64,000 nt of DNA from a virus. Taxonomy: Duplodnaviria > Caudoviricetes. A program made the translations under genes and the position numbers. The notes beneath the pieces were generated by a model, which saw only the letters and a list, made by a program, of their open reading frames with translations, had not been told where the DNA came from and ran no database searches. This document shows, piece after piece, positions 132 to 62,441 of this stretch. The DNA is taken from IMG/VR virus record IMGVR_UViG_3300028797_000104, positions 1 through 64,000 of that record; one strand, written 5' to 3'. Every line of letters starts with the position of its first letter. Positions within the stretch are counted from its first letter, which is position 1.

Positions 132-3100
132 ATCGCAAATGATTTGGTTATAGTTCATCCTATGACTTCAATGTCTGGATATCAAATGTAAGGTATCCCT
201 TCTATAGTAATATAGATGAAAAAATACCAAGTGAATTGCTGGAAACTCCTTTTAAGAAAGGACAATCAGCAGCCAAGTATAAGTTTAATTATATTTTCGT
301 CATTTTTTATAATTTAAACTTATAAAGGTTCAGAGACTATCGAAAACATATATAAGAAGAAAAATCTTATAAAAGAAGTGAGTAGAGTACATCTTAAAAA
401 GATGGAAGCGCTTGGCATCTTATAAAGGATAAAACAATATAAGATGATGATATAGTCCGAACTTATCAGCAATGATAAGAATTTAATAGAAATATTAAGA
501 ATAACATAATTGATTACATACATTGAATACTTAGCCGGAAAGGCAAAAGGGGCAACAAGTCAGGGTGACTTATTTAATAGCCCATTCAAACTGGGAAATG
601 TTGATCCAAACTATACTGCTGACAGAGTAGTAGAAGCAGCTGCATCAGGCACTGGTGCTCAGGCATTAGCATGGACTCCAATCGTTCATGGTGCTATTCG
701 TTACAATAATGTTGATTATGACGTTAAGTTAGTAAAAGCTGGAGCCTCTGACATCTATGGTTTCTATAAGGATGCAGATAAGAAGTTCTATTCTGATGCA
801 GCTTATACAACTCAGATTAATGTTGCTTCTGATACTAAAGTAGCGTACGTTTATGACAACATTGTGGTACCATAGAACGATTTACCAACTCTGAAAGCTG
901 AAATGAAGAGCATTCCTCTGATTGCTCGCGCACGTAGAATTGCCGTATACTACTCACAAATTGCGGCATTCCAGGCAAAGACTGATTATGGGTTTGACCT
1001 TGGGGATTAGTTAGCAGAGAAAGCTGTTGGTCAGTTAAGCTATAAAAATTTTGTAGCATAATACAGTGATGTATTATTAAAAACTTCGTGAATTCATGGA
1101 AAACCTTATAAGAGTTTGTATCGCTTATATGGCAATCATGATCTAAGCTTTATAATTTAAAATAGAACATTATAATTATATTTTTGATTATAATGTAGGA
1201 CAGCATCGACGGATGTTTTCATAGAACTCCAATTTTTATGAATTACTACATTTAATATATTATTATTTTATTGATTGGAGAAATAAAATGTACGGATATA
1301 TTTATAAGACTACCGATAAGAAAACTGGTAAAATATATATTGGATAGCATCATGCACCTATATTTGAAGGATATAAATATTTGGGTAGCGGGTTAGTTAT
1401 TTCAAATATTAAAAATAAACTTTAGGAAGAAAATATTAATCTTGAATCGAGATTTGATATAGAAATGCTTGATACTGCTGAATCAAAGTTTGAATTAAAT
1501 GAGAAAGAAATTTATTGGATAAATAAATTAAATTCGAGAGATCCGGATATAGGATACAATATTTGTAAAGGTGGAGAAGCGGGTCCTGGAGGTCCGATGA
1601 TGTTAGGTCATAAGCACTCTAAAGAAACGAAAAGAAAAATGAGTGAAAATAGATCGGGGTCAAAAAATTCAAACTATGGAAATAGATGGCATCAATCAGA
1701 TGAATTAAAAGCATTACATAGTATTTTATCAGCAGGTAGTAATAATGGAATGTATGGTAAGAAGCATTCAACCGAATCAAAAAATAAAAATAGAGAATCC
1801 CATCTTGGTAAATTTGCTATATCTAATATTGAATTAGATAAAGTCATCATGGTAACAGAATCTGAATCTATTGAATATTTTAATAATGGTTGGATAAAAG
1901 GAAACATACATTGTAAAAGAGATTATAAAGAAAGAGCAACGACTATCGAAAGTATAGGTTAAGAGAAATATTTAACCAAATAAATGAGTAGAGTAGAACT
2001 TAAGTAAGTTCGAAGCGCGAAGCGTCTTATGTTTGGTAATAGAATATAAGATGATGATATAGTCTAATCTATAATGAATAAATAAATTATAGAGAATATA
2101 TGGAAACGATATATTCGTAATGAAAATGGAAATTGATACAGAAGTTGTAGAGCTTCTTGATAGCACTGCTGGTGCTGCATAGACTGACCTTCAGTGGTCA
2201 AAGACTCTCCCAGTTGGCGTTAACTACAAATTAGTTGTTTAAATTTGCGAGCGCCAACTTTAAAAAACCACATGAATTGCTGGGAAATCAATTAAAAATA
2301 GTTGACAATCAGCAGCGAAGTCCATATAATATAATATGGAAACGTTCAACGACTATCGAAAGTATAAACTAAAAGAAATATTTAGTTGAATAAACGAGTA
2401 GAGTAGGACTCAAATGAGTTCGAAGCATGTGGAATTTACTAAAGGATAAAACAATAGTAAATTATGATATAGTCTGAACTATATGGTAACATATAGAAAA
2501 TATTTTGAGAAAATTAAATATTCTTACATTTATAAATTTAATTAATGTTTATAAATGTGGGAATGAAATAAAATAATTTTCAATGAAATATTTGTAACAT
2601 AATTGAAGCAAGCAAGAACATTATCAAGGATTTATGGAAATCGTAGAAATTGGTCGCCAGTTAATTTATGATCGTACCAAGAGATTCAGCCCCAATTACA
2701 TGGTATGTGCTTCTAACCTGATTCCAGTATTAAGCTTCATTAATGGTTGGACACCTGCACCTGCAGGACAGGTTAATGGCCCATATTTCGCAGGTTAAAT
2801 AAATGAAAAATTTATTGTATATAATTATATGATAGGACAGCAGGTTGCAAACTGTTTTCAATACCTTGCTTTATTGGATTACTATCAAATATAATTTTTT
2901 ATCTTGCAAGGAGATATAACAAATGAATAAATAGGAAATAATTAATTATTATAGTATACATTCAACTAAGCAAACTTTGGAAAAGTTTAATTTATCTCGT
3001 CGTTAGTTATATAAAATACTTGATGAATTTAACATTGAGCATCATTCCCAAAAATTTAATATGAGTATTGATGGTAACGGTTTTAAAAGGAAAAAAGATT

Positions 3101-5414
3101 AGGAATTTAAACAATTATTAGATACAATAGACATTAATGAATTTTATGAATATTATCTTACTCACGCAAAAAAATATACTGCTATTAAATATAATATAAC
3201 GGAATCTAAAGTAGGATAGATTTTAGACCATTATAATTTAAAGCATTTAACCGCGTAGCAAGCATTAAATAATATTTATATTATTGAATATGGATCTATT
3301 GAGAATGGTAGACAAATTACTCATGGATCTACTATAAATAAGTTAAATTCAGAAGAATCTAAATAGAAACGAATTAATACGTGCATTGAAAAATATGGTG
3401 GACCTTCTCCTTTTTCCTCAAAAGAAATTTAGGATAAACGTAATAAAACGGTTCAGGATAAATATGGAGTATCTAATGTATCAAAATTAGATACGGTTAA
3501 AAATAAAATTAAATTAACGCATGAATCGCGCTATGGTGGAATTGGATGGGCAAGTGATAGTGGAATGACTAAATATAAAGAAACCCTTATGGAAAAATAT
3601 GGGGTTGAATATGCTTGCCAATTACCTCAATGTATAAATGCAAATCATGGATGTAATTCTGGACCTAATACTAACTTCGAGAATTTATGTAATGATAATA
3701 ATTTAATTATTGATAATAAAGAATTTGTTATTAATAATTTTCGATATGATTTTAAAATTGGAAATGTTTTAATAGAAATTAATCCGTCTTATTCCCATAA
3801 TTCAACTTTTGGATTTAAAAATACCGTTGATCCTTTAAATAAAGATTATCATTATAATAAATCTAAAATTGCTATTAATAATGGCTATAGATGTATTCAT
3901 GTATGGGATTGGGATGATCCATACAAAATAATTCAGTTATTAAAATCTAAAGAAAAAATATTTGCAAGAAAATGCCAAATAAAAGAAGTACCAAAAGAAG
4001 AAACCATTTATTTTATAAATAAATATCATTTATAGAATTATATTAAAGATGATATTAGAATTGGTTTATATTATGAAAACGAACTTATTTCTATAATGAC
4101 TTTCGGAAAACCAAGATATAATAAAAAGCACCAATATGAACTTCTTAGATATTGTTCATCAAAAAATATAATTGGAGGAGCGGAAAAATTATTTTCTTAT
4201 TTTATAGAAAAATATAACCCCGATTCAATTATCAGTTACTGCGATAAAAGTAAGTTCATAGGTAATGTTTATAAAAAACTTAATTTTATTAGTCAAGGTG
4301 AACCAAGACCCACAAGACACTGGTACAATATAAAAACAAAAAAACATATAACTGATAATCTTTTAAGACAAAGAGGATTTGATTAGTTATTTGGTACTAA
4401 TTATGGTAAAGGTACTAATAATGAATAGCTAATGTTAGAAAATGGGTTTATAGAAATATATGATTGTGGTCAAGAAACTTTTATTTGGAAAAATATATGA
4501 ATTTTTCTGTATAGCCTGGCTATACAGTGATGTATAGAATAATAAATGACTCTAATTGCTGGGAAGTCTTTAGAGCTTTAACTACTACAACATAGATTGA
4601 AAAGTCAAATGTGAAAGTTTAAAAAAGTTAAAGATTAGATAATCAGCAGCTAAGTTCCTAAAAATAATAAATTTAAGGAAAAAGTTCAACGACTATTCCT
4701 CCCAAAGAGGAAGTAGGTTCTAAGTAGAATCGAAACGGGTCACGTCTTATTAAAGACGAAGATATAGTCTGTACACATATGAAAGTATGTGCTTGGATAT
4801 TCCAAGATATAAAAGTAACGATTTTATATAAACATAATAGACACTTGGAGCGCTGAAAGTTTATGTATCTCCTGCTATGGCAGCTGGTAGATATATCATT
4901 GGCGTCAATGGTGACGATATGATGAGCTCCGTTAAACAATTAGCGGCATAAATAAGAAATTGTTTATGAAAACCTCGTGAACTCATGGAAAATCTTAATA
5001 TTTAAGGGCATAATATTAAGACAATCATGATCTAAGACTTAATAAAATTAAAGAAAGATGATATAAATTTATTAAGTAAAGAGCAACGACTATCGAAAGA
5101 CTTATCAAAAAGAAATATTTTGAATAAGAATCAAGTAGAGTAGATTTCAAGTGAAATCGAAGTGCGAGGAACCTTTAAAAGGATAAAACAATTAAAGGTT
5201 ATGATATAGTCTGAACTCCATAGTGATATGGAGAGAATAAATGGAAACGATTTATTTGTAACATAATTGAGCAGTGTATGCCCCGTACATGGCGATAGTC
5301 CCGACTCAGCTTCTCCAATATGCAGATGGTGGAACTAGCTAGGGATGGAGCACCCTTTACGATCTAAAGGTGCTTAATGCCGATCTGGTGGTAGCTGGAG
5401 AAATTGTAGCATAA
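132..5414 (+). CDS. Major capsid protein (T4 gp23-like), 5'-partial, spliced; exons 132-182, 513-1043, 2129-2220, 2606-2795, 4841-4932, 5270-5414
   Basis: Joining the exons at U.G-defined 5' sites and terminal-G 3' sites gives one frame: IANDLVIVHPMTSMSGY|ITYIEY...IARARRIAVYYS...LAEKAVGQLSY|EIDTEVVELL...PVGV|SKQEH...TKRFSPNYMVCASN...YFAG|TLGALKVYVSP...SSV|AVYAPYM...STLYDL. This matches gp23-family motifs (vQPM, LaxEI..EInrE, GtL..rykVY, YaPY). Needs TAG=Gln. Confidence 0.92.
183..512 (+). mobile_element. Group I intron 2 of the capsid gene (no ORF)
   Basis: P1 GGAUAU/GUAUCC with U.G at the splice site; core elements AATTGCTGGAAA, AATCAGCAG, GTTCAGAGACTA, GATATAGTCC; ends in G512. Confidence 0.9.
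1192..1280 (+). promoter_or_regulatory. Structured RNA leader with SD-pairing loop, copy 1
   Basis: Outer stem AAUGUAG/CUACAUU, two inner hairpins, and loop CUCCAAU complementary to AUUGGAG (SD, 1274-1280). A covarying copy lies at 2830-2913. Confidence 0.6.
1288..1962 (+). CDS. GIY-YIG homing endonuclease with NUMOD3 repeats
   Basis: MYGYIYKTT...KIYIG(TAG=Q)H...YLGSG...E.YWI...GYNI, followed by GHKHSKETKRKMS and GMYGKKHS repeats; in frame with track ORF 1465-1962. Confidence 0.9.
2221..2605 (+). mobile_element. Group I intron 4 of the capsid gene (no ORF)
   Basis: P1 GUUGGCGU/GCGCCAAC; core AATTGCTGGGAA, AATCAGCAG, GTTCAACGACTA, GATATAGTCTG; splicing rebuilds the Val codon GT|A. Confidence 0.9.
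2830..2913 (+). promoter_or_regulatory. Structured RNA leader with SD-pairing loop, copy 2
   Basis: Outer stem UGAUAG/CUAUCA, inner hairpins AGCAG/CUGUU and CAAUA/UAUUG, and loop CCUUGC complementary to GCAAGG(AG) at the SD. Confidence 0.6.
2923..4500 (+). CDS. Intron-encoded homing endonuclease (KYG repeats, Vsr/DUF559-like PD-(D/E)xK domain, Hef-like C-terminal domain)
   Basis: One frame with TAG=Q. EKYGGPSPF, DKYGVSNVS and EKYGVEYA repeats; RYDFKIGNVLIEIN; NGYRCIHVWDWD; MTFGKPRYNK..YELLRYCS..IIGGAEKLF. Confidence 0.8.
4933..5269 (+). mobile_element. Group I intron 6 of the capsid gene (no ORF)
   Basis: P1 CCGU/GCGG; core GAACTCATGGAAA, AATCATGA, GAGCAACGACTA, GATATAGTCTG; splicing rebuilds the Val codon GT|A. 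Confidence 0.9.
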
Positions 5415-46635: not shown

Positions 46636-48558
46636 ATGTCTTTATGGGGAACTGAATTTGATATAGCACCAAAAGAAAATAAAAAGAAAATTCTTGATAA
46701 GATTAGTAAACCAAAAAAAGTAGTATCGGAAAATAGTGTAAAAACAAAATAGACAAAAAAAGATAAAGAAGTAGATCCATATTCTTTTATTCCATCTATT
46801 GAAGAAGAAGTATATAGAATATTAGGTAAATATAAAGATAATACTTTAGTAATTCGAGATTTAGAAACATTTAAAAATTATTTTTCTATTGCAATCAAGA
46901 ATGGATCCATAGCAGTAGATACAGAAACAAATAACAGTCTAGATCCAATAACTTGTAAATTGATGGGATTATGTATTTATACACCATCAATGAAACAAGC
47001 ATATATTCCAGTAAATCATGTAGATAAAGAAGGTAATTTATTAGATAATCAAATTACGGAAGAATAGATTAAAGAGTAGCTTTTACGTTTGATTTAGAAT
47101 AATGTAAAAGTTATTATGCATAACGGCAAGTTTGATTATCAGGTTTTGAAATGCACTTGCGATATTGAATTAGTTCCATATTGGGATACAATGATTGCAG
47201 CAAAAATTTTAGATGAAAATGAATTAAGAGCTTCATTAAAAGAACAATATATAGATAAAATAGATTCAAGTCAAGAAAAATATGATATTGAGCATTTATT
47301 TGAAGGATTACCTTATGCAATTTTTAATCCCGAATTATTTGCATTATATGCAGCAACAGATTCTAAGATGACGTATGATTTATATGAATGGCAATTAAAA
47401 CAGTATATGCTTCCAGATAATAGTAAATTATTAAATCTTTTATTAAATGTGGAAATGCCTGTTGTTCAAGTGGCAGCAGAAATGGAATTGACTGGTATTT
47501 GTATTGATTAGGAATATGCAAAAAGATTAAGTAAAAAATATCATGATATTGCAAATGGTGTAGATAAGCAAATCGAAATCGAATTAAGAAAGTATGATGA
47601 TTAGATAGCAAAGTGGAGATTAACAGAAGAGGCTAATGCTAAACCATTATCTAAAAAACCAAATAAAAATGGTGAATATACTTATTAGAAATCTAAAAAT
47701 GAACAATTATAGAATCCTATCTAGATAACCAGTCCAACTTAGTTAGCAATACTTTTATATGATATATTAAAAGTAGGTTTAATTGATAAAAAAACTCCAA
47801 GAGGAACAGGAGAAGAAATTTTACAAAAAATTAAGCTCCCTATATGTGATTTAATTTTAGAAAAAAGAGGATTAGAAAAATTAATAGGAACATATATTGA
47901 TAAATTGCCAACATGCGTAAGTGAAAAAGATAATAGACTTCATGCACATTTTAACTAGTTAGGAGCAGGTACAGGAAGATTTAGTAGTAGTGATCCCAAC
48001 CTTTAATTAATGGAGGCATATATTCGTGAGAGTATATGAAAATCGCGTGAATTCAATGAATAGAGGTAACATAAATTCTTAACATTGAGCCAAGCTTATT
48101 AGAAATTAATAAGAAGGTGCAACGACTAGGGAATGAGAGTTAATATCGATAATTTCCCCACGAGCGCGCGATAACTCATTTATATAAAAAATATCTTATT
48201 AATTTAAAAATAATAGATAAATGAGTTAATGATATAGTCTGAACTACATTGAGAGTTACGTAGATGTAGAAGTTAAGATAAAGAGCTTAACGATAACATA
48301 ATGCAAAATATCCCGTCCCATAATAAGGAAATTAGATTATTATTTAAAGCAGGTTATACAAATTACGAAATTGAAACTTTAATGGATAGATTTGATATTA
48401 ATGAGGATGATGAAATCGAAACAAGTAATGGTTGGATTCTCGCATCAGAATTAAAAGTTAATAATAGTTATCAATTGGATAAAGATATTATTAAAATAGT
48501 TGATTTAATTAAAAATGGTAATATAATTACAGTTATATATTAGAGAGAAGGTGATTAA
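46636..48558 (+). CDS. polA: DNA polymerase A, N-terminal piece (exons 46636-48003 and 48304-48558)
   Basis: Exonuclease motifs AVDTET, HNGKFD and YAATD; TGRFSSSDPNL|QNIP across the intron; ends in a Hint-like appendage. Confidence 0.88.
48004..48303 (+). mobile_element. Group I intron in polA (no ORF)
   Basis: P1 CCUU/GAGG; core GTGCAACGACTA and GATATAGTCTG; ends in G; restores PNL|QNIP. Confidence 0.9.
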
Positions 48559-48559
48559 A

Positions 48560-49649
48560 ATGAAAGTTCGCGTTCGAAAACCAAATATTCTCGTTGGAGC
48601 GGACTTTTCTTAAATCACAATAGGAACCAAGGTTATTATGCCAATACAGTCAGGATAAAAATATGACGGATGCATATATGCAAGGAAAAGATTTATATGC
48701 AACTATTGCATCCGGAGTATATAAAAATAATTATTGGGATAATATGGAACATAGAGAAGATGGTACTCCAAATCCTGAAGGTAAGAAAAGACGAAGTAAT
48801 TGTAAGTCACTTTTGCTTGGAATTATCTACGGAAGAGGAGCAAATTCTATAGCTGAATAGATTGGTACAGATTTAGCAGGTGCTCAAAAAATTATCGATG
48901 ATTTTTATAATGGATTTCCAAAAGTAAAAGAATGGACTGATAAAACAGAAGCAGATGCTAAATAGAATGGATATGTGGAAGATCTATGGGGTCGCAGAAG
49001 AAGATTACCAGATATTCAACTTCCAAAATATACAATTAAAACTGATAATGAATCTTCCGATTTTAATCCTCTTTTATATTCAATGGGTAAATATTCATCG
49101 GAAAATTCTAAAATAATAAATGAATATAAGAAAAAATTAGAATCAATTAAATCTAGAAAAGATTATAATATCATTAAGGAAGAAGCAGAAAAAAATCATG
49201 TGCATATAACAGATAATGGTGGATTCATTGCATAGGCTCAAAGACAATGTGTAAATGCAAGAATTCAAGGAGGGGCAGCCTCTATGTCTAAACTTGCCAT
49301 GAGAAAAGTTTTTGATAATCAAGAATTAAGAGATTTAGGATTTAAGATTCTATTACAAATTCATGATGAATTAATTGGAGAATGTCCAAAAGAAAATGCC
49401 GATAAGGTAGCAGAAATCTTAACGTCGGTAATGAAAGAAAGTGCAAAACCAGTAGTTCAAGTTCCATTTAAATGCGATGCTACTATAGAAACACATTGGT
49501 ACGAATCCGATTATTCTGATGTTTTAAATAATGAATATTAGAAATTATTAAAAACAAAAAACGAAAAAGATGCATTTAATGATATTTATAATGAACATCA
49601 AGAATTAACTGAAAATCAATTGAAAAAGATTTTAAATATAGTTGATTAA
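48560..49649 (+). CDS. polA: DNA polymerase A, C-terminal piece, with a 7-nt discontinuity in motif A
   Basis: MKVRVRKPNILVGADFS, then TAAATCA, then QQEPR...KSLLLGIIYG...NARIQG...QIHDE. Confidence 0.82.
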
Positions 49650-49732: not shown

Positions 49733-50419
49733 ATGCCTAATGAAATTATTTTTATTATTGAATTGGTAGTATGTTTTTTAGCCTTAACCCTAATTAATAA
49801 ATTCTTAAATAAAGAGGGTCTTATTGCATGGATTGCAATTGCTTCTATTTTGGCAAATGTAATGACAGCAAAGACTTCGGATTTATTTGGAATTAGTTAT
49901 ACTTTAGGAACTATTCTATTTGCATCTACATTTTTAGCTACGGATATGATTACAGAAAGATTTGGTAAGGAAGATGCAAAAAAGGGCGTAATTATTGGAA
50001 TGGTTGGAACTCTTTCTTTTATCGTAGCCAGTCAAATTTGTCTTTGGTATAAACCAACTGATTTTGATTATGCAAATCCTTCGATGCAAACTCTATTTTC
50101 TCTGAATCTTAGAATCAGTATTTCTAGCGTAATTATGTATTTTATTGCTAATATGGTAGATGTTTATATTTATGATGCTCTTAAGAAGAAAATGAATAAT
50201 AAACATATGTGGCTTAGAAATAACGTAGCAACTATTATCTGTAATACTTTAGAAAACTTTTTCTTTATGTTTGGAGCCTTTTTTGGTATTTATGATAATA
50301 AAACTATTTTAATGATGGCTATTACCACTAGCTTAGTGGAAATCGTAGTTGGTTTGTGTGATACTCCTTTCCTTTATCTTTCAACTAAACTAACTAAGAA
50401 GGAGACTATTAATGAGTAA
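49733..50419 (+). CDS. yhhQ: Queuosine precursor transporter (YhhQ/DUF165)
   Basis: Hydrophobic protein; ILANVMTAK, FLATDMITERFG, MWLRNNVAT and DTPFLY. Confidence 0.9.
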   Translation: MPNEIIFIIELVVCFLALTLINKFLNKEGLIAWIAIASILANVMTAKTSDLFGISYTLGTILFASTFLATDMITERFGKEDAKKGVIIGMVGTLSFIVASQICLWYKPTDFDYANPSMQTLFSLNLRISISSVIMYFIANMVDVYIYDALKKKMNNKHMWLRNNVATIICNTLENFFFMFGAFFGIYDNKTILMMAITTSLVEIVVGLCDTPFLYLSTKLTKKETINE

Positions 50420-51113
50420 AGCATTTGTATTAAGTAGTGGTGGTCTTGATAGTACTACCTGTTTAGCTATGGCTATTGAAAAATATGGAGTAGAAAATGT
50501 AGTTACAGCATCTCTTTATTATGGACAAAAACACGATAAGGAATTGAAATGTGCTTAGGCTGTAGCTGATTATTATGGTGTTAGACATATTGAGGAAGAT
50601 ATATCTAATGTAATGAAATATGCAAGTGATGTATGTACTCTGGTTAAGGGTGGAAAAAACATTGAACATGCTTCATATGAAGAGCAAATTAAACATACTA
50701 GTAATGGTAGAGTTGCAACTTATGTGCCTTTCAGAAATGGTTTATTTTTAAGTATTGCTGCCGCATATGCTGATAGTATTTTTCCTAATGAAAAAGTAGA
50801 AATTTACTATGGAGCTCATGCAGATGATGCAGCAGGAAATGCTTATGCTGATTGTACACCAGAGTTTGCAGAAGCTATGAATCATGCAATTTCATTAGGA
50901 ACCTATGGAAATATTACGGTATGTAGACCTTTAATTAATTGGAATAAAGCTCAAGTAGTTAAAGAAGGTCTTAGATTAAAGGTACCATATGAACTTACTT
51001 GGAGTTGTTATGAAGGTGGAGATAAACAGTGTGGGACCTGTGGTACCTGCATTGATAGAAAAAAAGCATTTTTAGAAAATGGGGTAATTGATCCCGTCCC
51101 ATATGAGGTATAA
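50412..51113 (+). CDS. queC: 7-cyano-7-deazaguanine synthase
   Basis: SSGGLDS, YGQKH, TYVPFRNG and TWSCY...CGTCGTC. Confidence 0.95.
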
Positions 51114-51115
51114 TA

Positions 51116-51562
51116 ATGTATCAAATTGAAACAACTATTTCTTTTGAAGCTGCTCATAGATTATATGGAATTGATACTTATTCAAAAGAATGTTCTGATT
51201 CCATACATGGTCATAGTTATAAAGTAACTGTTTATTTAAGTAGATCAGAAATAACTACCTCTGGAATGGTCATTGATTTTAAATACCTTAAGAAGATCAT
51301 TAAAGAAACTATAGAAAATAAATATGATCATTCATTGATTCTTAGGGATATTGATCCATTGGTATCAGTTATTCAAACTCTTGCTCCAGAACAAAAATTA
51401 AATGTAGTTTCTGATAGCCCTACCGCTGAATGGATGGCTATGACTTTTTATTATGAACTATTTCATAAAATTAAAGAGATAGATGAATGGGTAGATATTG
51501 TAATGGTATCTGTACAAGAAACCGAAAATAATATTGCTACCTATTTTGAAGGAGAATATTGA
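51116..51562 (+). CDS. queD: 6-carboxytetrahydropterin synthase
   Basis: FEAAHRL, C..IHGHSY, GMVIDF and PTAE. Confidence 0.93.
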   Translation: MYQIETTISFEAAHRLYGIDTYSKECSDSIHGHSYKVTVYLSRSEITTSGMVIDFKYLKKIIKETIENKYDHSLILRDIDPLVSVIQTLAPEQKLNVVSDSPTAEWMAMTFYYELFHKIKEIDEWVDIVMVSVQETENNIATYFEGEY

Positions 51563-52272
51563 TGATTCCAGTAGCCGAAATATTTGGTCCAACTATTTAG
51601 GGAGAAGGACCGGATGTAGGATTAAAGAGTATTTTTGTAAGAGTAGCTGGATGCGATTTTGCTTGTTCTTGGTGCGATAGTAAATTTGCTTGGAACGTTA
51701 AAAATGCGGTTAAATATGAAGAATAGCAATTACTCGATCTTCTTTTAAATAAATGTAAAGAAACAAATTGCAATTCGGTAATTTTAACTGGAGGAAATCC
51801 TTGTTTATATACTTTTGGTAAAATAGTATATAATTTATCTCTTTCTAATATTTAGGTTGGAGTTGAGACGTAGGGTAGTTATTTTCCTGAATGGCTTGAA
51901 TATATAACTACTTTAGTCCTTAGTCCTAAGGCTCCTTCTAGTGGGCAGCCCGACGTAATGAATAACATTAAAAATTATATCTATTCCAGTTCTTTGCCTC
52001 CCATGATCGCTTTAAAGATTCCAGTTTTTAATGATGAAGATTTCAATTTTGCGTAGAAATATTATGATAAATTTTAGGATTGTTTAAGTCCTTCTTTTAG
52101 ATTTTATTTAAGCGTAGGAAATGATGATACTAAAGAAGATGGAGATATTTCTAAAAGAATTTTAAAGTCTTATGAATGGTTAATTAATAAAGTTGCTGAA
52201 TCTTCTATGAATAAAGTTTATGTTCTTCCTCAAATTCATACATTAGTTTGGGGAAATAAATAGGGAGTATAA
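51562..52272 (+). CDS. queE: 7-carboxy-7-deazaguanine synthase (radical SAM)
   Basis: EIFGPTI(TAG=Q)[28 protein letters not shown] and PQIH. Confidence 0.93.
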
Positions 52273-52273
52273 A

Positions 52274-52879
52274 ATGTTTAATGAAAAGAAATGTGAAAAA
52301 GCAATAAAATTACTTTTAGAATCTTTTGGGGAAGATGTTAATAGAGCTGGATTAATTGAAACTCCAAGAAGAGTTGTAGGATACTGGAAAGAATTACTTG
52401 AAGGTACTCAATATACTAATTTATAGATTGCTAATAAATTCAATAAGAATTTTGAAGTTGGATATGATCCTATTGTAACTATTTACTAGGATGGTATTTT
52501 TAGTCATTGTGAACATCATTTAGCTTTAATGTATGATGGTTCTGCAATAATTGGATACATTCCAATTAAAAATGAGGATGATACATATAAAGTTCTTGGT
52601 TTAAGTAAAATTTATCGTATTGTAGATTTATGTGCAAAAAGGTTGCAACTTCAAGAAAAATTGGCATCAGATATTGCAGAATGTATTTCTTTAGCAACTG
52701 GATCTACATAGGTTTACGTTAATTTAAATATGAAACATGGTTGTGTTAGTGCTCGAGGAATTAAATCTTCTGGATGTACCAACGTTACTTTTATGACGAA
52801 AGAGTTAAGAAAAAATATTGGCGCAAGAGAAGAATTTGAAAAGAAAGCCATGGAACTTATATTGAGGAATCAAAAATGA
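52274..52879 (+). CDS. folE: GTP cyclohydrolase I
   Basis: ETPRRV, SHCEHH, GLSKIYR, RLQLQE and HGCVSARG. Confidence 0.93.
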
Positions 52880-53553
52880 AAATTTTAGTGATTACTTCAT
52901 GTACCGCAAAAAAGAAATATGAATATACCGATAAAACAATATGCCCCGCGATAGAAATGTATCAAGGGGCATAGCATCTATTAATTAAAGAAGGATATTT
53001 AAATTATTTAAAATCTTATGATAATTTAGATATGATTATTATTTCGGCAGGTTATGGAGTTATTAAACCTAATACCCCTATTCATTCATATAATACTTCT
53101 TTTAACGATATGAATGAAACGGAAATTAAAAATCATAGCATAAATCTTCATATTACAGAAGATTTAAATAAAATTTTGCCGGAATATGATATTATATTTT
53201 TATGCTTAGGATTAAATTATTTAAAAAGTATAGATTTTTCTAAATTAGATATTTCGCAAAATTAGAAATTTTTTATTTTTTCTAGTTTTGATAATTATAA
53301 ATAGTTGACTTATTTACGATCATATCATATAATTAATTCGGGAAAACAGGAAGCAATTGATTATTCTTATGGTATTATAGGGTTAAAAGGATACTTATTT
53401 AAGCTTCTTTGTAATGAATTCGTTAAGGATAAGGATTTATTAAATTCATTATATCGAAATCCAGAATTAGTAGACGATATATTAGAAAAATATAAAGGAA
53501 TCCGAAAGAATTACCAAAATCCATTAGGATATAAAAAAATAGAATTATTTTAA
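52876..53553 (+). CDS. DUF6884/YaaA-like protein in the deazaguanine cluster
   Basis: ITSCTAKK, PAIEMYQG and IISAGYG motifs. Confidence 0.7.
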
Positions 53554-53565
53554 GGAGAATAGCTA

Positions 53566-53904
53566 ATGTATTCAGAATATAGTTTTCCGAATAAATATGG
53601 AATTAGTAAAATTACTTTAACTAAAAAGATTCATTGTTATTGTAGGTTAGGTGGAGATTGGTATACTAATCAACTAGAGATTAGTTTTAAACCTGGAGCT
53701 GAAATTCCAGATTATGTATATTTGGATAAAGCTATTGAAGAAAGATGTGAAAAGCAAAATTTAATTATCGAAGAAGTAATTAATAATATTTCAAATATTA
53801 TTTTGGAACAATGTCCTTCTGCTACCAATCTTCATATTACTTCTTATGTAGATGATAGTGTTCCTAAGAACATGTTCGTAAAGGTAGAAAAATATGAACT
53901 TTGA
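53566..53904 (+). CDS. QueF-like T-fold protein
   Basis: CYCRLGGD..TNQLEISFKP...IIEE pattern, size and context. Confidence 0.6.
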   Translation: MYSEYSFPNKYGISKITLTKKIHCYCRLGGDWYTNQLEISFKPGAEIPDYVYLDKAIEERCEKQNLIIEEVINNISNIILEQCPSATNLHITSYVDDSVPKNMFVKVEKYEL

Positions 53905-54823
53905 TTTTTATTTTACTGGAATATCTTTGGATGAAGAATTCGAATTTCTTTTAGATAATAATGGATGCGTACTATTATCTTAGTTAAATCAAAGAAAAGA
54001 TATATTAACTTGGATAGATAAAATTAAAAGTAAAAATGTAAAATGTAAATTATTTATTGATAGTGGAGCCTTTAGTGCTTGGACTAAAGGAGTCTCTATC
54101 AATGTAGATGACTATATTAATTTTATTAATCAGTATTAGGAATATTTTACTGTGTATGCTTCTGTAGATAATATTCCAGGAGAACCAAAAGCATCGAATA
54201 CCGCTACACAAAAAGAAGTGGATGAATCCGCAGATAAAACTTGGTAGAATTTTTTATATATGAGATCTAAAGTAAATAATCCAGATAAATTGCTTTGTAC
54301 TTTTCATTGCGGAGAATCTTTTGATCATTTAATTAATATTTTAGAGTATTCAGATGAACATGGTCCAATTAAATACCTTGGTTTAGGTGGTATGGTTGGT
54401 AAATCTGATTTTGTTCTAAAAGGATTTTTAATGAAATGTTTTGATATTATTTCTAAAAGTTCTAATCCTAATATTAAAGTTCATGCTTTTGGAATGACTA
54501 AATATGATTATTTAAATCAATTTTATTTTACTTCAACTGATTCGACTACTTGGTTAATGACTGCTTCCTATGGTAATATTATTATTGATACTAAACCCGT
54601 ATATATTAGCGATCATGGATTACTCGACAATGATAATATTATAAATAAAAATTCTGCTATAAAAATGGAATTTGAAAATAAATTAAAAAAATATGGTTAT
54701 ACTTTAGATGAGTTGGTTGGAGATTATAAAAAAAGAAGATTATTTAATCTAAAAAGTTTATGGGAATGGGCAAATCAATATAATCCACCTAAAAAGATTG
54801 GAACAAAAATAGAATTATTTTAA
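53894..54823 (+). CDS. dpdA: DNA-guanine transglycosylase (DpdA/TGT family)
   Basis: LFIDSGAFS, SVDNIPG, GLGGMV, KVHAFG and STDSTTW; ends the que operon. Confidence 0.8.
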
Positions 54824-54840
54824 GATAAAAGGAGATACTT

Positions 54841-55959
54841 ATGATTTTAAAGGTAGAAGATTTAAAGAATTTAGCTTAGACTATTCTTCCTGCAGTAGAA
54901 TCGACTGATCTAACTGCCTTGCCAGAAACATTGGAATTAGTTGCTAAAAACGGTATTCTTAATTTTAGCGTTACTAATAAAGAATATCTTCTTGATGTTG
55001 CAATGACTATTGATTATGAAGAAGATTTTGAAGCAACTGTAAATGCTACTTTATTTTTAAAATTAATTTCATCTACAACTACGGATACAGTAGAAATTAA
55101 TGTAAAAGATAATTTTTTAATTATTAAAGGAAATGGATCTTATAAATTACCTTTAATTTTTGAAAATAATACCTTATTTAAAATTCCTAGAATTAATATT
55201 GAAAGTATTGATACTGAATTTGATATTGAAGGAGATATTTTATTTAGTATATTGAAATATAATACTAGGTAGCTATCTACTGGTATTCTTTCGCGACCAG
55301 TTCAAAAAATGTATTATATGGATGAAAAAGGAGCCATTACTTTTACTTCAGGAGCTTGTGTAAATAAATTTGATCTTCCTTCTAAAGTTAAACTTTTATT
55401 TAATCAAAGATTGGTTAAATTATTTAAATTATTTAAAGGAGTAAAAACTCATTTAGTTATTGGAAGTACTAAAATTAGCGAAGAGATTACTCAAACCAAA
55501 ATTAGATTCGAAGCAAATAATATTAAATTGACTGCTATTCTTTCTGGAGACGAAGGAATGATTAAATCCATTCCAGCAGAAGCAATTAGAAATAGAGCGT
55601 ATAATCAATATATTTATTCAGTTAATGTTAATACTAATCAATTTAATGATGCTCTAAATAGAATTAAATTATTTGTAGGAGGAGCTAAACTTTTAATTCC
55701 ATATATTAAATTAACATTTAATTCTGATGGGATTATTGTTTCCGATATTGATTCTAAAAATATAGAAGTTATTAAATATAGTTCTGTTCCAAGTAATTTT
55801 ACCGATGATTATGTTTTAATTGTAGATTTAAATGAATTGCAAGCAGTATTGGATACTTGTACGGAATCCGATTTAACTTTTAATTTTGGAGATAAGCAAT
55901 GTTTAGTAATAAGTAGGGTATCCATTAAAAATATTATTCCGGAAGTAAGTATGGATTAA
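54841..55959 (+). CDS. dnaN: DNA polymerase III beta-type sliding clamp
   Basis: 372 aa with a three-domain clamp-like pattern; phage-encoded DnaX, HolA and HolB nearby. Confidence 0.75.
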
Positions 55960-56995: not shown

Positions 56996-58212
56996 TGGCA
57001 GATAGTTTAACTGATGTATTAAAAAAGATAAAGAAACAATACGGGGATTCGGTCGTTAAAGTTGGGGTAGATGCATTAGAATTGGATGGAGTATTATCTC
57101 TTGGATCTCCATCATTTGATTTTTGTGTTTATGGAGGAGTTCCAGAAGGACGAATCATCGAATTAAGTGGGTAGGAAGGCTCAGGTAAAACTACAACAGC
57201 ATTTTTAATTGCTGCTTCTTATCAACGCAAAGAATTAGAAAGACATCCAATAGGAGTTGAATGGACTGATAATACTGGAATTGTTAGAAAAGGTCCAAGA
57301 TCAATAATTCTTTTAGATAATGAAGGTACAGCAGATCCGGCATGGGCTATTAAGCTCGGTTATAATATGAATGAAGATGCAGATGTTCCAACTATAATTA
57401 TTAGACCAGAAGCTCAATCAGCAGAAGAAATTTTTGATATGGCTCTTGATATGTTAAAAACTGGAGAAGTTGGACTTCTGATTTTTGATAGTATAGCAAC
57501 ACTTGTTCCATAGCAAATTGCAGATGAATCTATGGAAAAGCAATAGATGGGTGGTATTGCAAAAGCATTAACAAGATTTGCAAATACTGCTATTGGATTA
57601 TTAAGAAAATATAAAGCTACATTAGTTGCAATTAATCAGGTTCGAGATAATATGACCGGTTATGGAGATGCATTAACTACTCCAGGCGGACGTTCATGGA
57701 AACATGCTTGTTCAATGCGATTAATGTTTAAGCGTGGAGAGTTTTTTGATGAAGATGGAAATACATTAACAAAATCAGCTCAATCTCCTGCGGGTCATGT
57801 AATTGAAGTTTATGTATTGAAAACTAAGGTTTGTAAATGGGATAGAAAACTTGGATATCTACATTTAAATTATACAAAAGGCGTAGATGTAATTCAGGAT
57901 ACTATTGATGTTGCAACACATCTTGGATTTATTGATAATTCTGTTTAGGGTTCATTCAAATTACTTGATCCCGATACAGGGGAATTAATCTGCGATGAAA
58001 ATGGAGATCCAATAAAAATTCGTGGTAAAAGAAATGTTGGCATTTATTTTAAAGATCATATGAGTATCTGGAGATAGATTTATGATAAATGCTATGAAAA
58101 ATTAAGTAGAAAAGAAGAAGATAATATAGTCAGTTTTGAACAAATGCTAAATATAAATCTCAATGAAAAATTAGGAATTGATATAGAAGAATCAAATTTG
58201 GAGGAACTATAA
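56995..58212 (+). CDS. recA: RecA/UvsX recombinase
   Basis: GGVPEGRIIELSGQEGSGKTT, IFDSIA, INQVR and TPGG. Confidence 0.95.
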
Positions 58213-58442
58213 TGAGTTTATTTGATATGTTTATTGATCTCGATCTATGCATTAATCGTGATGTAGTAATTTGGGGAATTGATGATGATAAAGAAGATTG
58301 GGAAGAATTATACGAAGGACCAGTTTCTGAGGTACCTCTTTGGGTTTTGATTTGTCCTTTTATTTCTATGTTTATTGCAGATAATGATCCAGAAATTCTT
58401 CATTTTTCCATAATGTTTGATTTGCCAGATGACGAAGAATAA
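58212..58442 (+). CDS. Small acidic hypothetical protein
   Basis: SD GGAGG; translationally coupled to recA. Confidence 0.65.
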   Translation: MSLFDMFIDLDLCINRDVVIWGIDDDKEDWEELYEGPVSEVPLWVLICPFISMFIADNDPEILHFSIMFDLPDDEE

Positions 58443-59759: not shown

Positions 59760-60776
59760 ATGATTAGTTTAAGCGTTAAATATAGACCTACAAAATTTAA
59801 TGATGTAAGTAGTCAAACATCAATTATTAGAATATTATCAAGACAAATTGATACAAATACATTTAAAAATGCATATTTATTCTGTGGTAGTAGTGGTTGT
59901 GGTAAAACAACTATTGCTAGAATCTTTGCAAATGAAATAAATAAACATCAAGGTAATCCAATAGAGATTGATGCGGCTAGTAATAATGGAGTAGATAATG
60001 TAAAACAAATTATTAAATCTGCATCGGAAAGAAGTTTAGATAGTGAGTATAAAATCTATATAATTGATGAATGTCATGCATTAACTAGTCAAGCATGGCA
60101 AGCATTTTTAAAATGTATTGAAGAACCTCCGAGATATACAATTTTTATTTTCTGTACGACTGAAAAGAATAAGGTTCCGGATACAATCAAAAATAGATGT
60201 CAAGTATTTAATTTTAATAGAATTCCATCTGAGTTAATAAGATTGCGTCTTGAATATATTTGTAAGAATGAAGGTTTTATAAATTATTTTGATGCTTGCG
60301 ATTATATTAGTAGAATTTGTAAAAATCAAATGAGAGATGGAATTGCATTTCTCGAACAATGTGCAGCATATGATAATGATTTAAACCTTGAAAATGTTTT
60401 GAAAGTTCTTGGTTCTTATTCTTATTCAGTATATTTTAAATTGATTAATAGTTTAATTGATGGTAATCTTGATTCTATTATAACAATTATAAATAATATC
60501 TATAATGATGGAAATGATTTGAAATTATTTGTAGATCAATTTTTATCTTTTATTCTTGATATATCAAAATATATTATTTGTAATAGTTTGACAGTAACAA
60601 AATTTCCAAATAATCAACTAGAAGAAATTAAGAAAGCTACTAACTTTGAGAATCCTTTGCAATATTATCAGTATATTATGAATAAGTTAATGACTTTAAA
60701 AAATGATATCAAGAATGATACAGACATTAAATCTACTGTAGATGTATATTTTATTTAGATGGGGAGTTATCAATGA
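59760..60776 (+). CDS. dnaX: Clamp loader subunit gamma/tau
   Basis: KYRP, GSSGCGKTT, EIDAASNNGV, IIDECH and LKCIEEPP. Confidence 0.93.
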
Positions 60777-61546
60777 TTAGAGGGCAAGAGAGATTATGTA
60801 CTGAGATTACTAGATTCTCTTTGAGCGATTTTCCACATTCTGTTTTACTAGTAGGACCAAGTGGTTCAGGAAAAGATTTAATTATTAGGTTTATAGCAGA
60901 ACACCTAGAATTAAATGTTCAGATTCTTGATGATGTATCATTTGAATCTTTAACTGAAATATATCTAAGGGTAGAACCTATTATTTATGTATTAGATAAT
61001 ATGAATATAAAGACTCAAAATCAAATTTTGAAGTTTTTGGAGGAACCACCAAGAAATTCTTTTATCATTATAACTGCAAGAAAATTAGGTCAATATTTAG
61101 CTACAATAGAAAATAGATGTAGGATATGGCAATTAGATGTTTATTCAAAAGAAGTTTTAGAATCATTTAATACATTAAATAATAAATTAATTATCGATAT
61201 ATCTAAAACTCCAGGTGATGTAATAAATTTTTGCAATTCGGATTTTGATAAATTATTAGATCTTTGTAATAAAATAATTGAAAAAATTTCAGTCGCATCT
61301 TATGGTAATTTATTTAATATAATTGATACAGTTAAAGAATTGAATATTGATATCTCTTTAGTGGTAAGAGTATTGAAATATCTAATTGTAGAGAAAATTA
61401 AAATGAATCCAGCAGATAAAATATGGTATGATATTTATATGAAAACATCTTTATTATTAGCTAATCTTGAAATAAGTCATATTGATAAGACACAATTATT
61501 CGAGAATTATTTAATAAGATTGAAGGAATATTATGCAAATAGATGA
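60773..61546 (+). CDS. holB: Clamp loader subunit delta-prime
   Basis: GPSGSGK, NQILKFLEEPP and TIENRC. Confidence 0.82.
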   Translation: MIRGQERLCTEITRFSLSDFPHSVLLVGPSGSGKDLIIRFIAEHLELNVQILDDVSFESLTEIYLRVEPIIYVLDNMNIKTQNQILKFLEEPPRNSFIIITARKLGQYLATIENRCRIWQLDVYSKEVLESFNTLNNKLIIDISKTPGDVINFCNSDFDKLLDLCNKIIEKISVASYGNLFNIIDTVKELNIDISLVVRVLKYLIVEKIKMNPADKIWYDIYMKTSLLLANLEISHIDKTQLFENYLIRLKEYYANR

Positions 61547-62441
61547 AGTTAAATACATAATTGAAAATAAAAAATATTCTGGTCAATTATTAATTTTTCA
61601 GTATTCTGATACAAAATTTATCGTTAGACAGTATATAGAGAAATTAGTTCTTGATTTTTCTTTTGATTTGATTTATAAAGATGAAATAGATAATAGTATT
61701 ATGACTGGTCCATCTTTATTTGGAGATATTGAGAGTAATGAATTAAGAGTATTTGATGTTGATGAATTTAATTATAATCAAAATATTTCAAAAGAAAAGA
61801 ATTTGATTGTTCTTTGTAAAAAGATAAATGATTCTATTAAGTCAATATATTCTGATAATATTATTATTGTTCCAAAATTAGAAGATTGGTAGATAAAAGA
61901 TTTTGTATATTCTGTTGGTGATGGCATTCCAGAATCTGATCTTGATATGTTGATTAATCTTTGTAATAATGATATTTATAGGTTAAATCAAGAATTAGAT
62001 AAAATGTTAATTTTTCCAAATAGTTTAAAACAGAATATCTTTAAAGAGTTTTATAAAGATGGAATATTTAATGATTTAGTTGATTCAACTATTTTTGATT
62101 TTTGTAGCAGTATTATAAAGAAGGACATATCAAAACTAACTTATATTTATTCTCAATTAGATAGAATGGATATAAGTCCATTAGGTTTTGTAAGTATTCT
62201 TTATTAGAATGTAAAAGATATTATTAAAATACAGTTAGGAGTAAAATCAACTCCCGAAAGTACAGGAATTGCAAAAAATAAGTTTTATGCAATCAAGTAT
62301 AATAATTTAAATAAATTTAATACGAAGCAATTAATTCAAATATTTGAATTATTAACAGATATAGATAAGAAAGTTAAATTAGGACAATTAGATGTTGATG
62401 ATATTATTGATTATGTAATTGTTTCTATATTTGCTTTTTGA
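61533..62441 (+). CDS. holA: Clamp loader subunit delta
   Basis: PSLFG, LNQELDK, TIFDF and DIDKKVKLG. Confidence 0.75.

Follow-up and report, generated by a model that had tools for sequence, protein, structure and literature searches.

A shared C-terminal Leu-Phe tail on DpdA and a DUF6884-like protein of a TAG-recoded phage: a probable docking motif for the phage sliding clamp

The DNA considered here, called the window below, is the first 64 kilobases (kb) of a single phage-like contig of 151,308 bp with about 30% G+C, from an uncultured phage (IMG/VR record IMGVR_UViG_3300028797_000104). Two of its genes, dpdA, which is predicted to encode a DNA guanine transglycosylase, and the gene of a DUF6884-like protein, end in the same peptide, K-I-E-L-F, and dpdA is followed by a gene for a beta sliding clamp. 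We consider it rather probable (about 0.72) that these tails are beta-clamp-binding motifs which couple DNA modification to replication. The elements on which the argument turns are the following.

52876-53553, + strand: DUF6884-like (YaaA-related) protein, 225 amino acids (aa), three TAG codons read as Gln; PF21818
53535-53554, + strand: 20-nucleotide repeat, copy 1; K-I-E-L-F, the stop codon and one further base; closes the DUF6884-like gene
53566-53904, + strand: 112-aa open reading frame (ORF) between the two tailed genes, without an LF tail; ORF call
53894-54823, + strand: DpdA, 309 aa, three TAG codons read as Gln; tblastn, phrog_887, AlphaFold2 (AF2)/Foldseek
54805-54824, + strand: 20-nucleotide repeat, copy 2; K-I-E-L-F, the stop codon and one further base; closes dpdA
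54841-55959, + strand: DnaN-type beta sliding clamp, 372 aa; profile, AF2/Foldseek, phrog_947

The tail and its conservation

The 20-mer AAAAATAGAATTATTTTAAG has exactly two occurrences in the window, both on the + strand, and no further site was found there with up to 3 mismatches allowed. These exact matches confirm what had been noticed from the letters alone, namely that both genes close with the same 20 nucleotides (nt) coding for K-I-E-L-F and a stop; the placement of dpdA directly before the clamp gene had been read correctly as well, the clamp start lying 17 nt past the dpdA stop. The proteins end in ..GYKKIELF (DUF6884-like) and ..GTKIELF (DpdA), with the last five codons and the stop contained in the repeat, and they are the only 2 of the 211 ORFs called genome-wide that end in LF. 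By chance, 0.019 protein pairs with a common C-terminal pentapeptide would be expected in the whole genome, and 4e-4 among genes no more than two positions apart. The identity of the nucleotides adds little to this, because identical codons for the same peptide are expected in about 4% of cases in an AT-rich genome (p ~0.04), and both codon bias and a small gene conversion could account for it; the peptide, and not the DNA identity, is the signal. A recent duplication of the 20-mer was also considered; the same p is too weak to decide the matter, and the tails diverge independently in close relatives of the two proteins (KIELF, KVELF, KMELF and RIDLF).

Judging from sequence comparison, the window gene is a phage DpdA of the DpdA1 type, that is, a predicted DNA guanine transglycosylase. 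In tblastn searches its product is 35-37% identical to the proteins of Dp-1 and MS1 and 27-31% identical to those of 9g, CAjan and NP1, the DpdAs of Flasso and of the Queuovirinae being matched too, and it matches phrog_887 at 7e-44. A sequence search found no relatives of DpdA in the Protein Data Bank (PDB); the fold search succeeded, and Foldseek with the AF2 model (predicted local distance difference test, pLDDT, 91.8) returned the archaeosine/queuine tRNA-guanine transglycosylase (ArcTGT/TGT) fold with probability 1.0. The bacterial DpdA equivalog NF041059, of the dpd restriction-modification cluster, scores only 26.9 bits against a cut-off of 200; the window protein is related to, but not an equivalog of, the DpdA of that cluster. 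In the model the TGT fold ends in a helix (278-294), after which the last 15 residues (295-309) form a coil whose final block falls to pLDDT ~60. Because this low-confidence coil follows a compact fold, the tail is best regarded as a flexible appendage outside it.

The original prediction was to be abandoned if the tails proved not to be conserved. The reverse was found: x-L-[FW] closes 115 of 120 DpdA homologs (42-98% identity, taken from a collection of 5.8 billion proteins), 92 of them with LF and 23 with LW, and it recurs at 27-36% identity in phages that have been characterised. Among the homologs without it, three have the near-variant SLI at their end. An alignment of 31 DpdA sequences has L308 in every one of them and either F or W as the last residue, whereas the preceding 10 residues vary freely. 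The share of K and R at positions -7 to -3 of the homologs is 0.35 vs a background of 0.16, and position -5 of the 115 tailed proteins is occupied by K in 55% and by Q in 5%. By this pattern of conservation the DpdA tail is a short linear motif.

The same observations bear on an explanation without any docking partner, in which the tail has an intramolecular or other role (oligomerisation, active-site capping, a degradation signal) or is a compositional accident of an AT-rich genome. It is true that K, I, E, L and F all have favoured AT-rich codons and that hydrophobic residues at a C-terminus can serve as protease signals. An accident, however, is at odds with the chance expectation for neighbouring genes given above, and a non-docking role with a tail that is kept across the 120 homologs behind a variable linker, that recurs on unrelated folds and that appears in the model as a low-confidence coil not packed into the fold; a degradation signal would also leave unexplained the N-terminal motif of the polymerases and the correlation with the clamp gene, both described below. 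We regard this explanation as largely refuted and very improbable.

The 225-aa protein is, by its sequence, a genuine member of the DUF6884 family. It matches PF21818 with 35.8 bits (cut-off 30 bits), and the CxxxK and (L/I)SAxxG motifs are invariant in the alignment of its homologs (C9, K13, S57, A58, G59 and G61 in alignment A5). According to the Pfam curators the family is related to YaaA, a DNA-binding protein, and is predicted to flip a base; the CxxxK and LSAxxG motifs have been described for it (PMC11701544). Of 47 homologs, only the 3 nearest (at least 74% identity) have a C-terminal extension of about 18 residues with the ending K-x-[ED]-L-F (KKIELF in the window); the other 44, which are more distant and in many cases lie on bacterial chromosomes, stop near '..ILEKYKK'. 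Since these lack the extension, the DUF6884-like protein seems to have gained its tail as an addition. Tailed genes of this type also stand directly after dpdA elsewhere, one in the related locus L011 (234 aa, ..NRKLF, Pfam E=7e-17) and others in a family of 165-167 aa (..TRKLF, ..ISLF) whose hhalign match to DUF6884 spans both motifs (probability 71%, E=4e-5). The proposal that the DUF6884-like protein acts in the same process as DpdA is thus favoured by association, namely by its position inside the operon, by the gain of the tail and by the tailed DUF6884-type genes that directly follow dpdA in at least two other lineages. Our best guess is that the protein assists base flipping or handles abasic intermediates of the base exchange.

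The sliding clamp and the other carriers of the tail

By profile and by model, the product of the gene after dpdA is a true DnaN-type beta clamp with the three-domain fold. A profile of 25 phage clamp homologs (A3) matched the Bacillus subtilis DnaN structure 4tr6 over its full length (positions 1-353) with E=8.6e-23, the AF2 model (pLDDT 87.9) gave Foldseek template modelling (TM) scores of 0.76-0.79 to the Escherichia coli and B. subtilis clamps, and the protein matches phrog_947, processivity factor. The window clamp is 11-17% identical to bacterial clamps, and its single-sequence score with PF00712 is 16.8, below the cut-off of 24.4.

The pairing of this gene with a tailed DpdA was followed in two sets of genomes. 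An alignment-based search of viral contigs, unlike a single-protein query, which gave no match, yielded 80 loci, which extend at most 10 kb to either side of dpdA and contain 1,714 ORFs in total. In 63 of the 63 loci with enough downstream sequence, a clamp homolog is encoded on the strand of dpdA, 0-5 kb downstream of it; the remaining 17 loci, without a clamp homolog, all end less than 3.9 kb after dpdA. The second set consists of 13 named phages, of both family-A and family-B polymerase types, in which a tailed DpdA is paired with a clamp gene that abuts dpdA or lies at most 1.4 kb downstream. The DpdA endings in named phages are as follows.

Dp-1: ..RQRRLF
Flasso: ..QGKLF
CAjan: ..VMELF
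Vid5 and NP1: ..IQELF
9g-like FritzHoffmann: ..LQDLFDE
Vibrio phage 83AMN: ..LELF
Vibrio phage VpKK5: ..QPGLF
Edwardsiella phage ZHS: ..QSLW
RHEph04: ..EQRLF
Stenotrophomonas phage: ..EQMELF
BcepGomr: ..QQGLFV
Synechococcus phage Ssp-JY38: ..PVLF

Among the characterised DpdA1 phages (9g, CAjan, Dp-1, Vid5 and iggy), whose TGT-fold proteins are 27-36% identical to ours and adjoin genes for the synthesis of 7-cyano-7-deazaguanine (preQ0), the same tail and a neighbouring clamp gene were found in this analysis. The window phage differs from them in being TAG-recoded, in its 151-kb contig and in the additional tailed DUF6884 protein.

Tail-less DpdAs are found in Typha, Mufasa8, Rosebush, Finch and PEAT2. 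In these five genomes neither PF00712 nor the NP1-type profile A2 matched a clamp, while positive controls were detected by both; the window-type profile A3 also gave no match, a blank which counts for little because that run had no positive control. Cellulophaga phage phi38:2 (locus L090) is a mixed case, with DnaN present, a tail-less DpdA and an ..VNLF ending on both genes that flank it. In all, a clamp accompanies DpdA in 13 of 13 tailed and 1 of 6 tail-less phages (one-sided hypergeometric p ~5e-4, calculated by hand and not corrected for shared ancestry). The genes flanking the phi38:2 dpdA encode a 218-aa protein before it (1712-2365) and a protein with a ParB-like nuclease domain after it (3085-3549), and the DnaN gene of this locus follows QueE. 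The tail-less DpdAs of the actinophages (Rosebush, Typha, Finch and Mufasa8) always have a ParB-like gene beside them, a hint at another way of targeting DNA.

The co-occurrence is relevant to the question of whether the tail may instead, or in addition, bind the beta clamp of the host, with recruitment to any fork or competition with host clients as a result. The motif belongs to the class used by the clients of the host clamp, and the phage clamp shares its fold with the bacterial ones. Every tailed DpdA examined is, however, accompanied by a phage clamp, and there are tail-less DpdAs in genomes without a detectable phage clamp. Since a tail directed at the host clamp should not depend on a phage clamp, we consider such a target quite unlikely.

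In the 80 loci the tail extends well beyond DpdA. LF is the commonest C-terminal dipeptide among the 1,714 ORFs (131 observed vs ~6 expected), and LW ends 16 more. It closes 89 of 90 DpdA ORFs, the lone exception being a read-through artefact in a recoded locus, and it is retained in the longer DpdA ORFs (385-490 aa vs ~310) of L007, L010, L020, L011, L032 and L070, which have an N-terminal extension or fusion with no match in Pfam. The other carriers are DUF6884 proteins, class-I S-adenosylmethionine (SAM) methyltransferases adjoining dpdA, N6/N4 DNA methylases, a Toprim primase, a DnaB-like helicase, a Nlig-Ia ligase-like domain, an HNH protein, phosphoadenosine phosphosulphate (PAPS)-reductase-like and CxxCxxCC proteins, DUF5591 (ArcS-like), a TAGT-like glycosyltransferase and a Cas4-like nuclease (..ELW). 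Such a distribution over unrelated families is the pattern expected of clients with one docking hub. In loci of the L012-L029 type, tandem DpdA paralogs, both ending in ..QKRLF, stand directly before the clamp gene (L013:10001-11848), and the Cas4-like nuclease stands directly after it.

The identity of the hub is indicated by the polymerase. The PolA proteins of the 80 loci start with MSGLFNLPPR, MALFDF, MSLFKD, MPLFDIP or MGSLWGEEF, and the window protein with MSLWGTEFD. L-[FW] falls within the first seven residues in 24 of 43 unique PolA N-termini vs 2.2% of other ORFs, and with the close variants LSF, LL and LI allowed 40 of the 43 match. Polymerases that adjoin the clamp gene in proteobacterial and cyanobacterial phages start with ..GLFW(E/D)D (NP1, RHEph04, Ssp-JY38 and their kin), GMFWED or GFFWQD. 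Of the internal arguments for the clamp as the hub, this terminal L-F motif on the canonical clamp client is the strongest. An acidic ORF of 76 aa that closely follows the RecA-like gene of the window (58212-58442, + strand) likewise starts with MSLFDMFIDL.., with S-L-F as in the MSLW.. of the polymerase; it has no family match, and from its sequence it could be a small clamp-binding regulator.

Docking on some other shared hub, such as the clamp loader, the RecA-like recombinase, the single-stranded DNA-binding protein (SSB) or a phage-specific scaffold of the replication module, has to be weighed against this. The carriers include the primase and the DnaB-like helicase, which are not classical clamp clients, and the replication and recombination module is syntenic, so that other conserved proteins co-occur with the tail too. 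The clamp is, on the other hand, the one partner that stays by dpdA, often abutting it, across family-A and family-B modules, and the motif resembles that of beta-clamp clients, nearly canonically so in proteobacterial phages. SSB interactions run the opposite way, through the acidic tail of SSB itself, and the Cas4-like nuclease, being a carrier of the tail, is to be seen as a client and not as the hub. Another hub therefore appears unlikely to us.

The known motif supports a clamp as the partner. In bacteria, Pol II and Pol IV carry their clamp motif C-terminally and Hda N-terminally; the tails described here are placed as in Pol II and Pol IV, and the motif of the phage polymerase as in Hda. 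The likeness to the QL(S/D)LF carriers (Pol II, Pol IV, Pol III alpha, MutS/MutL and Hda) consists in a short L-F motif at a flexible terminus of unrelated enzymes that share one ring-shaped hub as a tool-belt. The differences are that the window motif has Lys and not Gln, with a basic run upstream, that the predicted clients are base-modifying enzymes not known as clamp partners and that the hub would be a phage clamp. In the tails of the proteobacterial phages (EQRLF, EQMELF, QQGLF, LQDLF and IQELF), which are near the canonical form, Gln is present. The QL(S/D)LF-like motif of beta-clamp clients is often C-terminal and its consensus tolerates much variation (PMC9690074), and there is a crystal structure of the E. 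coli clamp with the dipeptide Ac-Leu-Phe by itself as the ligand (PDB 4k3l). That the tail is a variant form of this motif and defines a new class of clients seems well supported by the comparison of sequences.

Among phages, the T4/RB69 clamp gp45 has clients (the gp43 polymerase, gp33 and gp55) that dock through terminal hydrophobic peptides. They resemble the proposed arrangement as clients of a phage clamp, and the DNA-modifying alpha-glucosyltransferase has been proposed to ride gp45; gp45 is, however, a trimer and another type of clamp. Outside the phages, DNMT1 bears a motif for binding PCNA and methylates newly replicated DNA (PMC9690074). Here too a DNA-modifying enzyme with a clamp-binding motif acts preferentially on new DNA, but through a PCNA-interacting peptide (PIP) box and a PCNA trimer, by methylation and not by base exchange, and with no evolutionary relation.

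Several points weigh against clamp docking. Lys stands where the canonical motif has Gln, and only two proteins of this genome bear the C-terminal tail. The order of the genes is partly inherited with the whole replication module. The binding pocket of the E. coli clamp maps unreliably onto the window clamp at ~12% identity: in a MAFFT alignment T172, P242 and L177 fall on conserved T, P and hydrophobic columns, and the C-terminal strand is misaligned. The contact between T4 alpha-glucosyltransferase and gp45 was not reproduced in a recent preprint (10.64898/2025.12.06.692756). Finally, efficient modification does not in general depend on the tail, because tail-less Rosebush reaches about 28% dPreQ0 and tailed Dp-1 1.7% (PMC6884629). 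The idea that the tail causes a higher level of modification in DpdA1 than in the other subfamilies was rejected as a general rule on the same grounds.

Genetic code, operon and introns

Read with the standard code, which most of the related loci use, many obvious genes of the window are broken (QueC, QueE, FolE, the clamp and RecA), and dpdA shrinks to a fragment of 187 aa; as a correction to the original prediction, the full gene spans 53894-54823 and contains three in-frame TAG codons. Once TAG is read as sense, ORFs of at least 150 aa add up to 18,826 aa in place of 6,442 aa, and 52 of the 55 such ORFs lie on the + strand. One in-frame TAG of dpdA aligns to a Gln present in 30 of 30 aligned homologs (LLSQLN), and for this reason TAG was read as Gln throughout; the sequence makes it most likely that TAG is reassigned to Gln in this phage. 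No tRNA genes were found within the 64-kb window.

The preQ0 genes (YhhQ, QueC, QueD, QueE and FolE) lie directly upstream of the DpdA region in one operon. The remaining features of the replication and modification region, from the polymerase to the clamp loader, are listed here.

46636-49649, + strand: family-A DNA polymerase in three pieces (PF00476, PF01612), with a group I intron at 47994-48261
49733-52879, + strand: preQ0 supply block, YhhQ-like, QueC, QueD, QueE and FolE; ORFs with TAG read as Gln
49733-50419, + strand: YhhQ-like preQ0 transporter; Pfam Vut_1
50412-52272, + strand: QueC, QueD and QueE, named by comparison with the annotated Dp-1 operon of identical gene order
End at 52879, + strand: FolE; Pfam GTP_cyclohydroI
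After the clamp gene, + strand: RecU-like protein (weak Pfam match), an ORF without a name and a RecA-like protein (Pfam)
59760-62441, + strand: clamp-loader set of DnaX-like, delta-prime-like and delta-like subunits; PF13177, PF12169, PF21694

The polymerase gene is split within its conserved SSSDPNL|QNIP motif by the group I intron (RF00028, 75 bits, + strand), which a scan of the whole window with default filters did not show and a focused scan did. Its second break, at 48558-48594, lies just before the 'SQQEP' motif, and several related loci are split at the same site. Four more group I introns of 60-72 bits (173-479, 2189-2496, 4503-4791 and 4923-5233, + strand) break genes in the first 5.3 kb of the contig and form an unusually dense cluster. 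Pfam, PHROG and NCBIfam gave no match for the 112-aa ORF that separates the two tailed genes. Two weak leads point to a QueF-like protein: its N-terminal 'SFPNKY' resembles 'TFPNKH' of Dp-1 QueF, and an Atlas cluster (score 0.87) has PF14489 in 35% of its members.

Proposed mechanism and its meaning

The motif with its conservation and flexibility, the nature of the clamp and the pairing of tail and clamp are results of the analysis; what we infer is the binding to the clamp, the coupling to replication and the biochemical role of the DUF6884-like protein. DpdA, with its TGT fold, would exchange guanine in double-stranded DNA for the preQ0 provided by the upstream FolE, QueD, QueE and QueC. 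The Leu-Phe at the end of its flexible 15-residue linker, with the free carboxylate, would enter the hydrophobic cleft of the phage clamp, which is encoded immediately downstream and would be loaded by the clamp loader of the phage. Carried by the clamp in the wake of the phage polymerase, which itself bears an N-terminal x-L-W motif, DpdA would scan the newly copied duplex. The DUF6884-like protein, of the YaaA type and as such a DNA-binding and probably also a base-flipping protein, would join the same tool-belt by means of its gained tail. There it would most likely assist DpdA or tidy up in its wake, abasic or intermediate sites being examples. The phage clamp would presumably be preferred over that of the host, and the tethering would make the modification selective for phage DNA.

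A wider form of this scheme is conceivable, though we hold it only tentatively. In it, clamp-bearing phages would use a terminal 'basic-x-L-F' code to load a whole hypermodification kit (DpdA, DUF6884, SAM and N6/N4 methyltransferases, ArcS-like proteins and glycosyltransferases), with replication-coupled self-marking limited to DNA that carries the phage clamp, and DUF6884 would act in the 7-deazaguanine pathway as a new enzyme which flips and processes the DpdA target or abortive (abasic) sites.

Phage DNA that carries the 7-deazaguanine modification is protected against restriction enzymes and CRISPR-Cas9. If the tail does dock on the clamp, it would offer a concrete mechanism by which DpdA may find and cover a whole genome in minutes, a point which the literature leaves unexplained. 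The insertion by DpdA has been argued to be post-replicative (PMC6884629, PMC10516641); in these main DpdA papers the word 'clamp' is absent and the tail is unmentioned, and we found no literature linking DpdA to a clamp. Clamp docking would also explain why dpdA stands beside the clamp gene in the model phages 9g, CAjan, Dp-1 and NP1, where genetics exist, a dpdA deletion of CAjan among them. Base exchange would then be coupled to replication and directed to the DNA marked by the phage's own clamp, in parallel to the eukaryotic coupling of DNMT1 to PCNA, and the list of clamp clients would extend to base-exchange and other hypermodification enzymes. The terminal LF may also serve as a signature by which unknown enzymes that act on DNA, DUF6884 being an example, can be recognised from the sequence of phage genomes.

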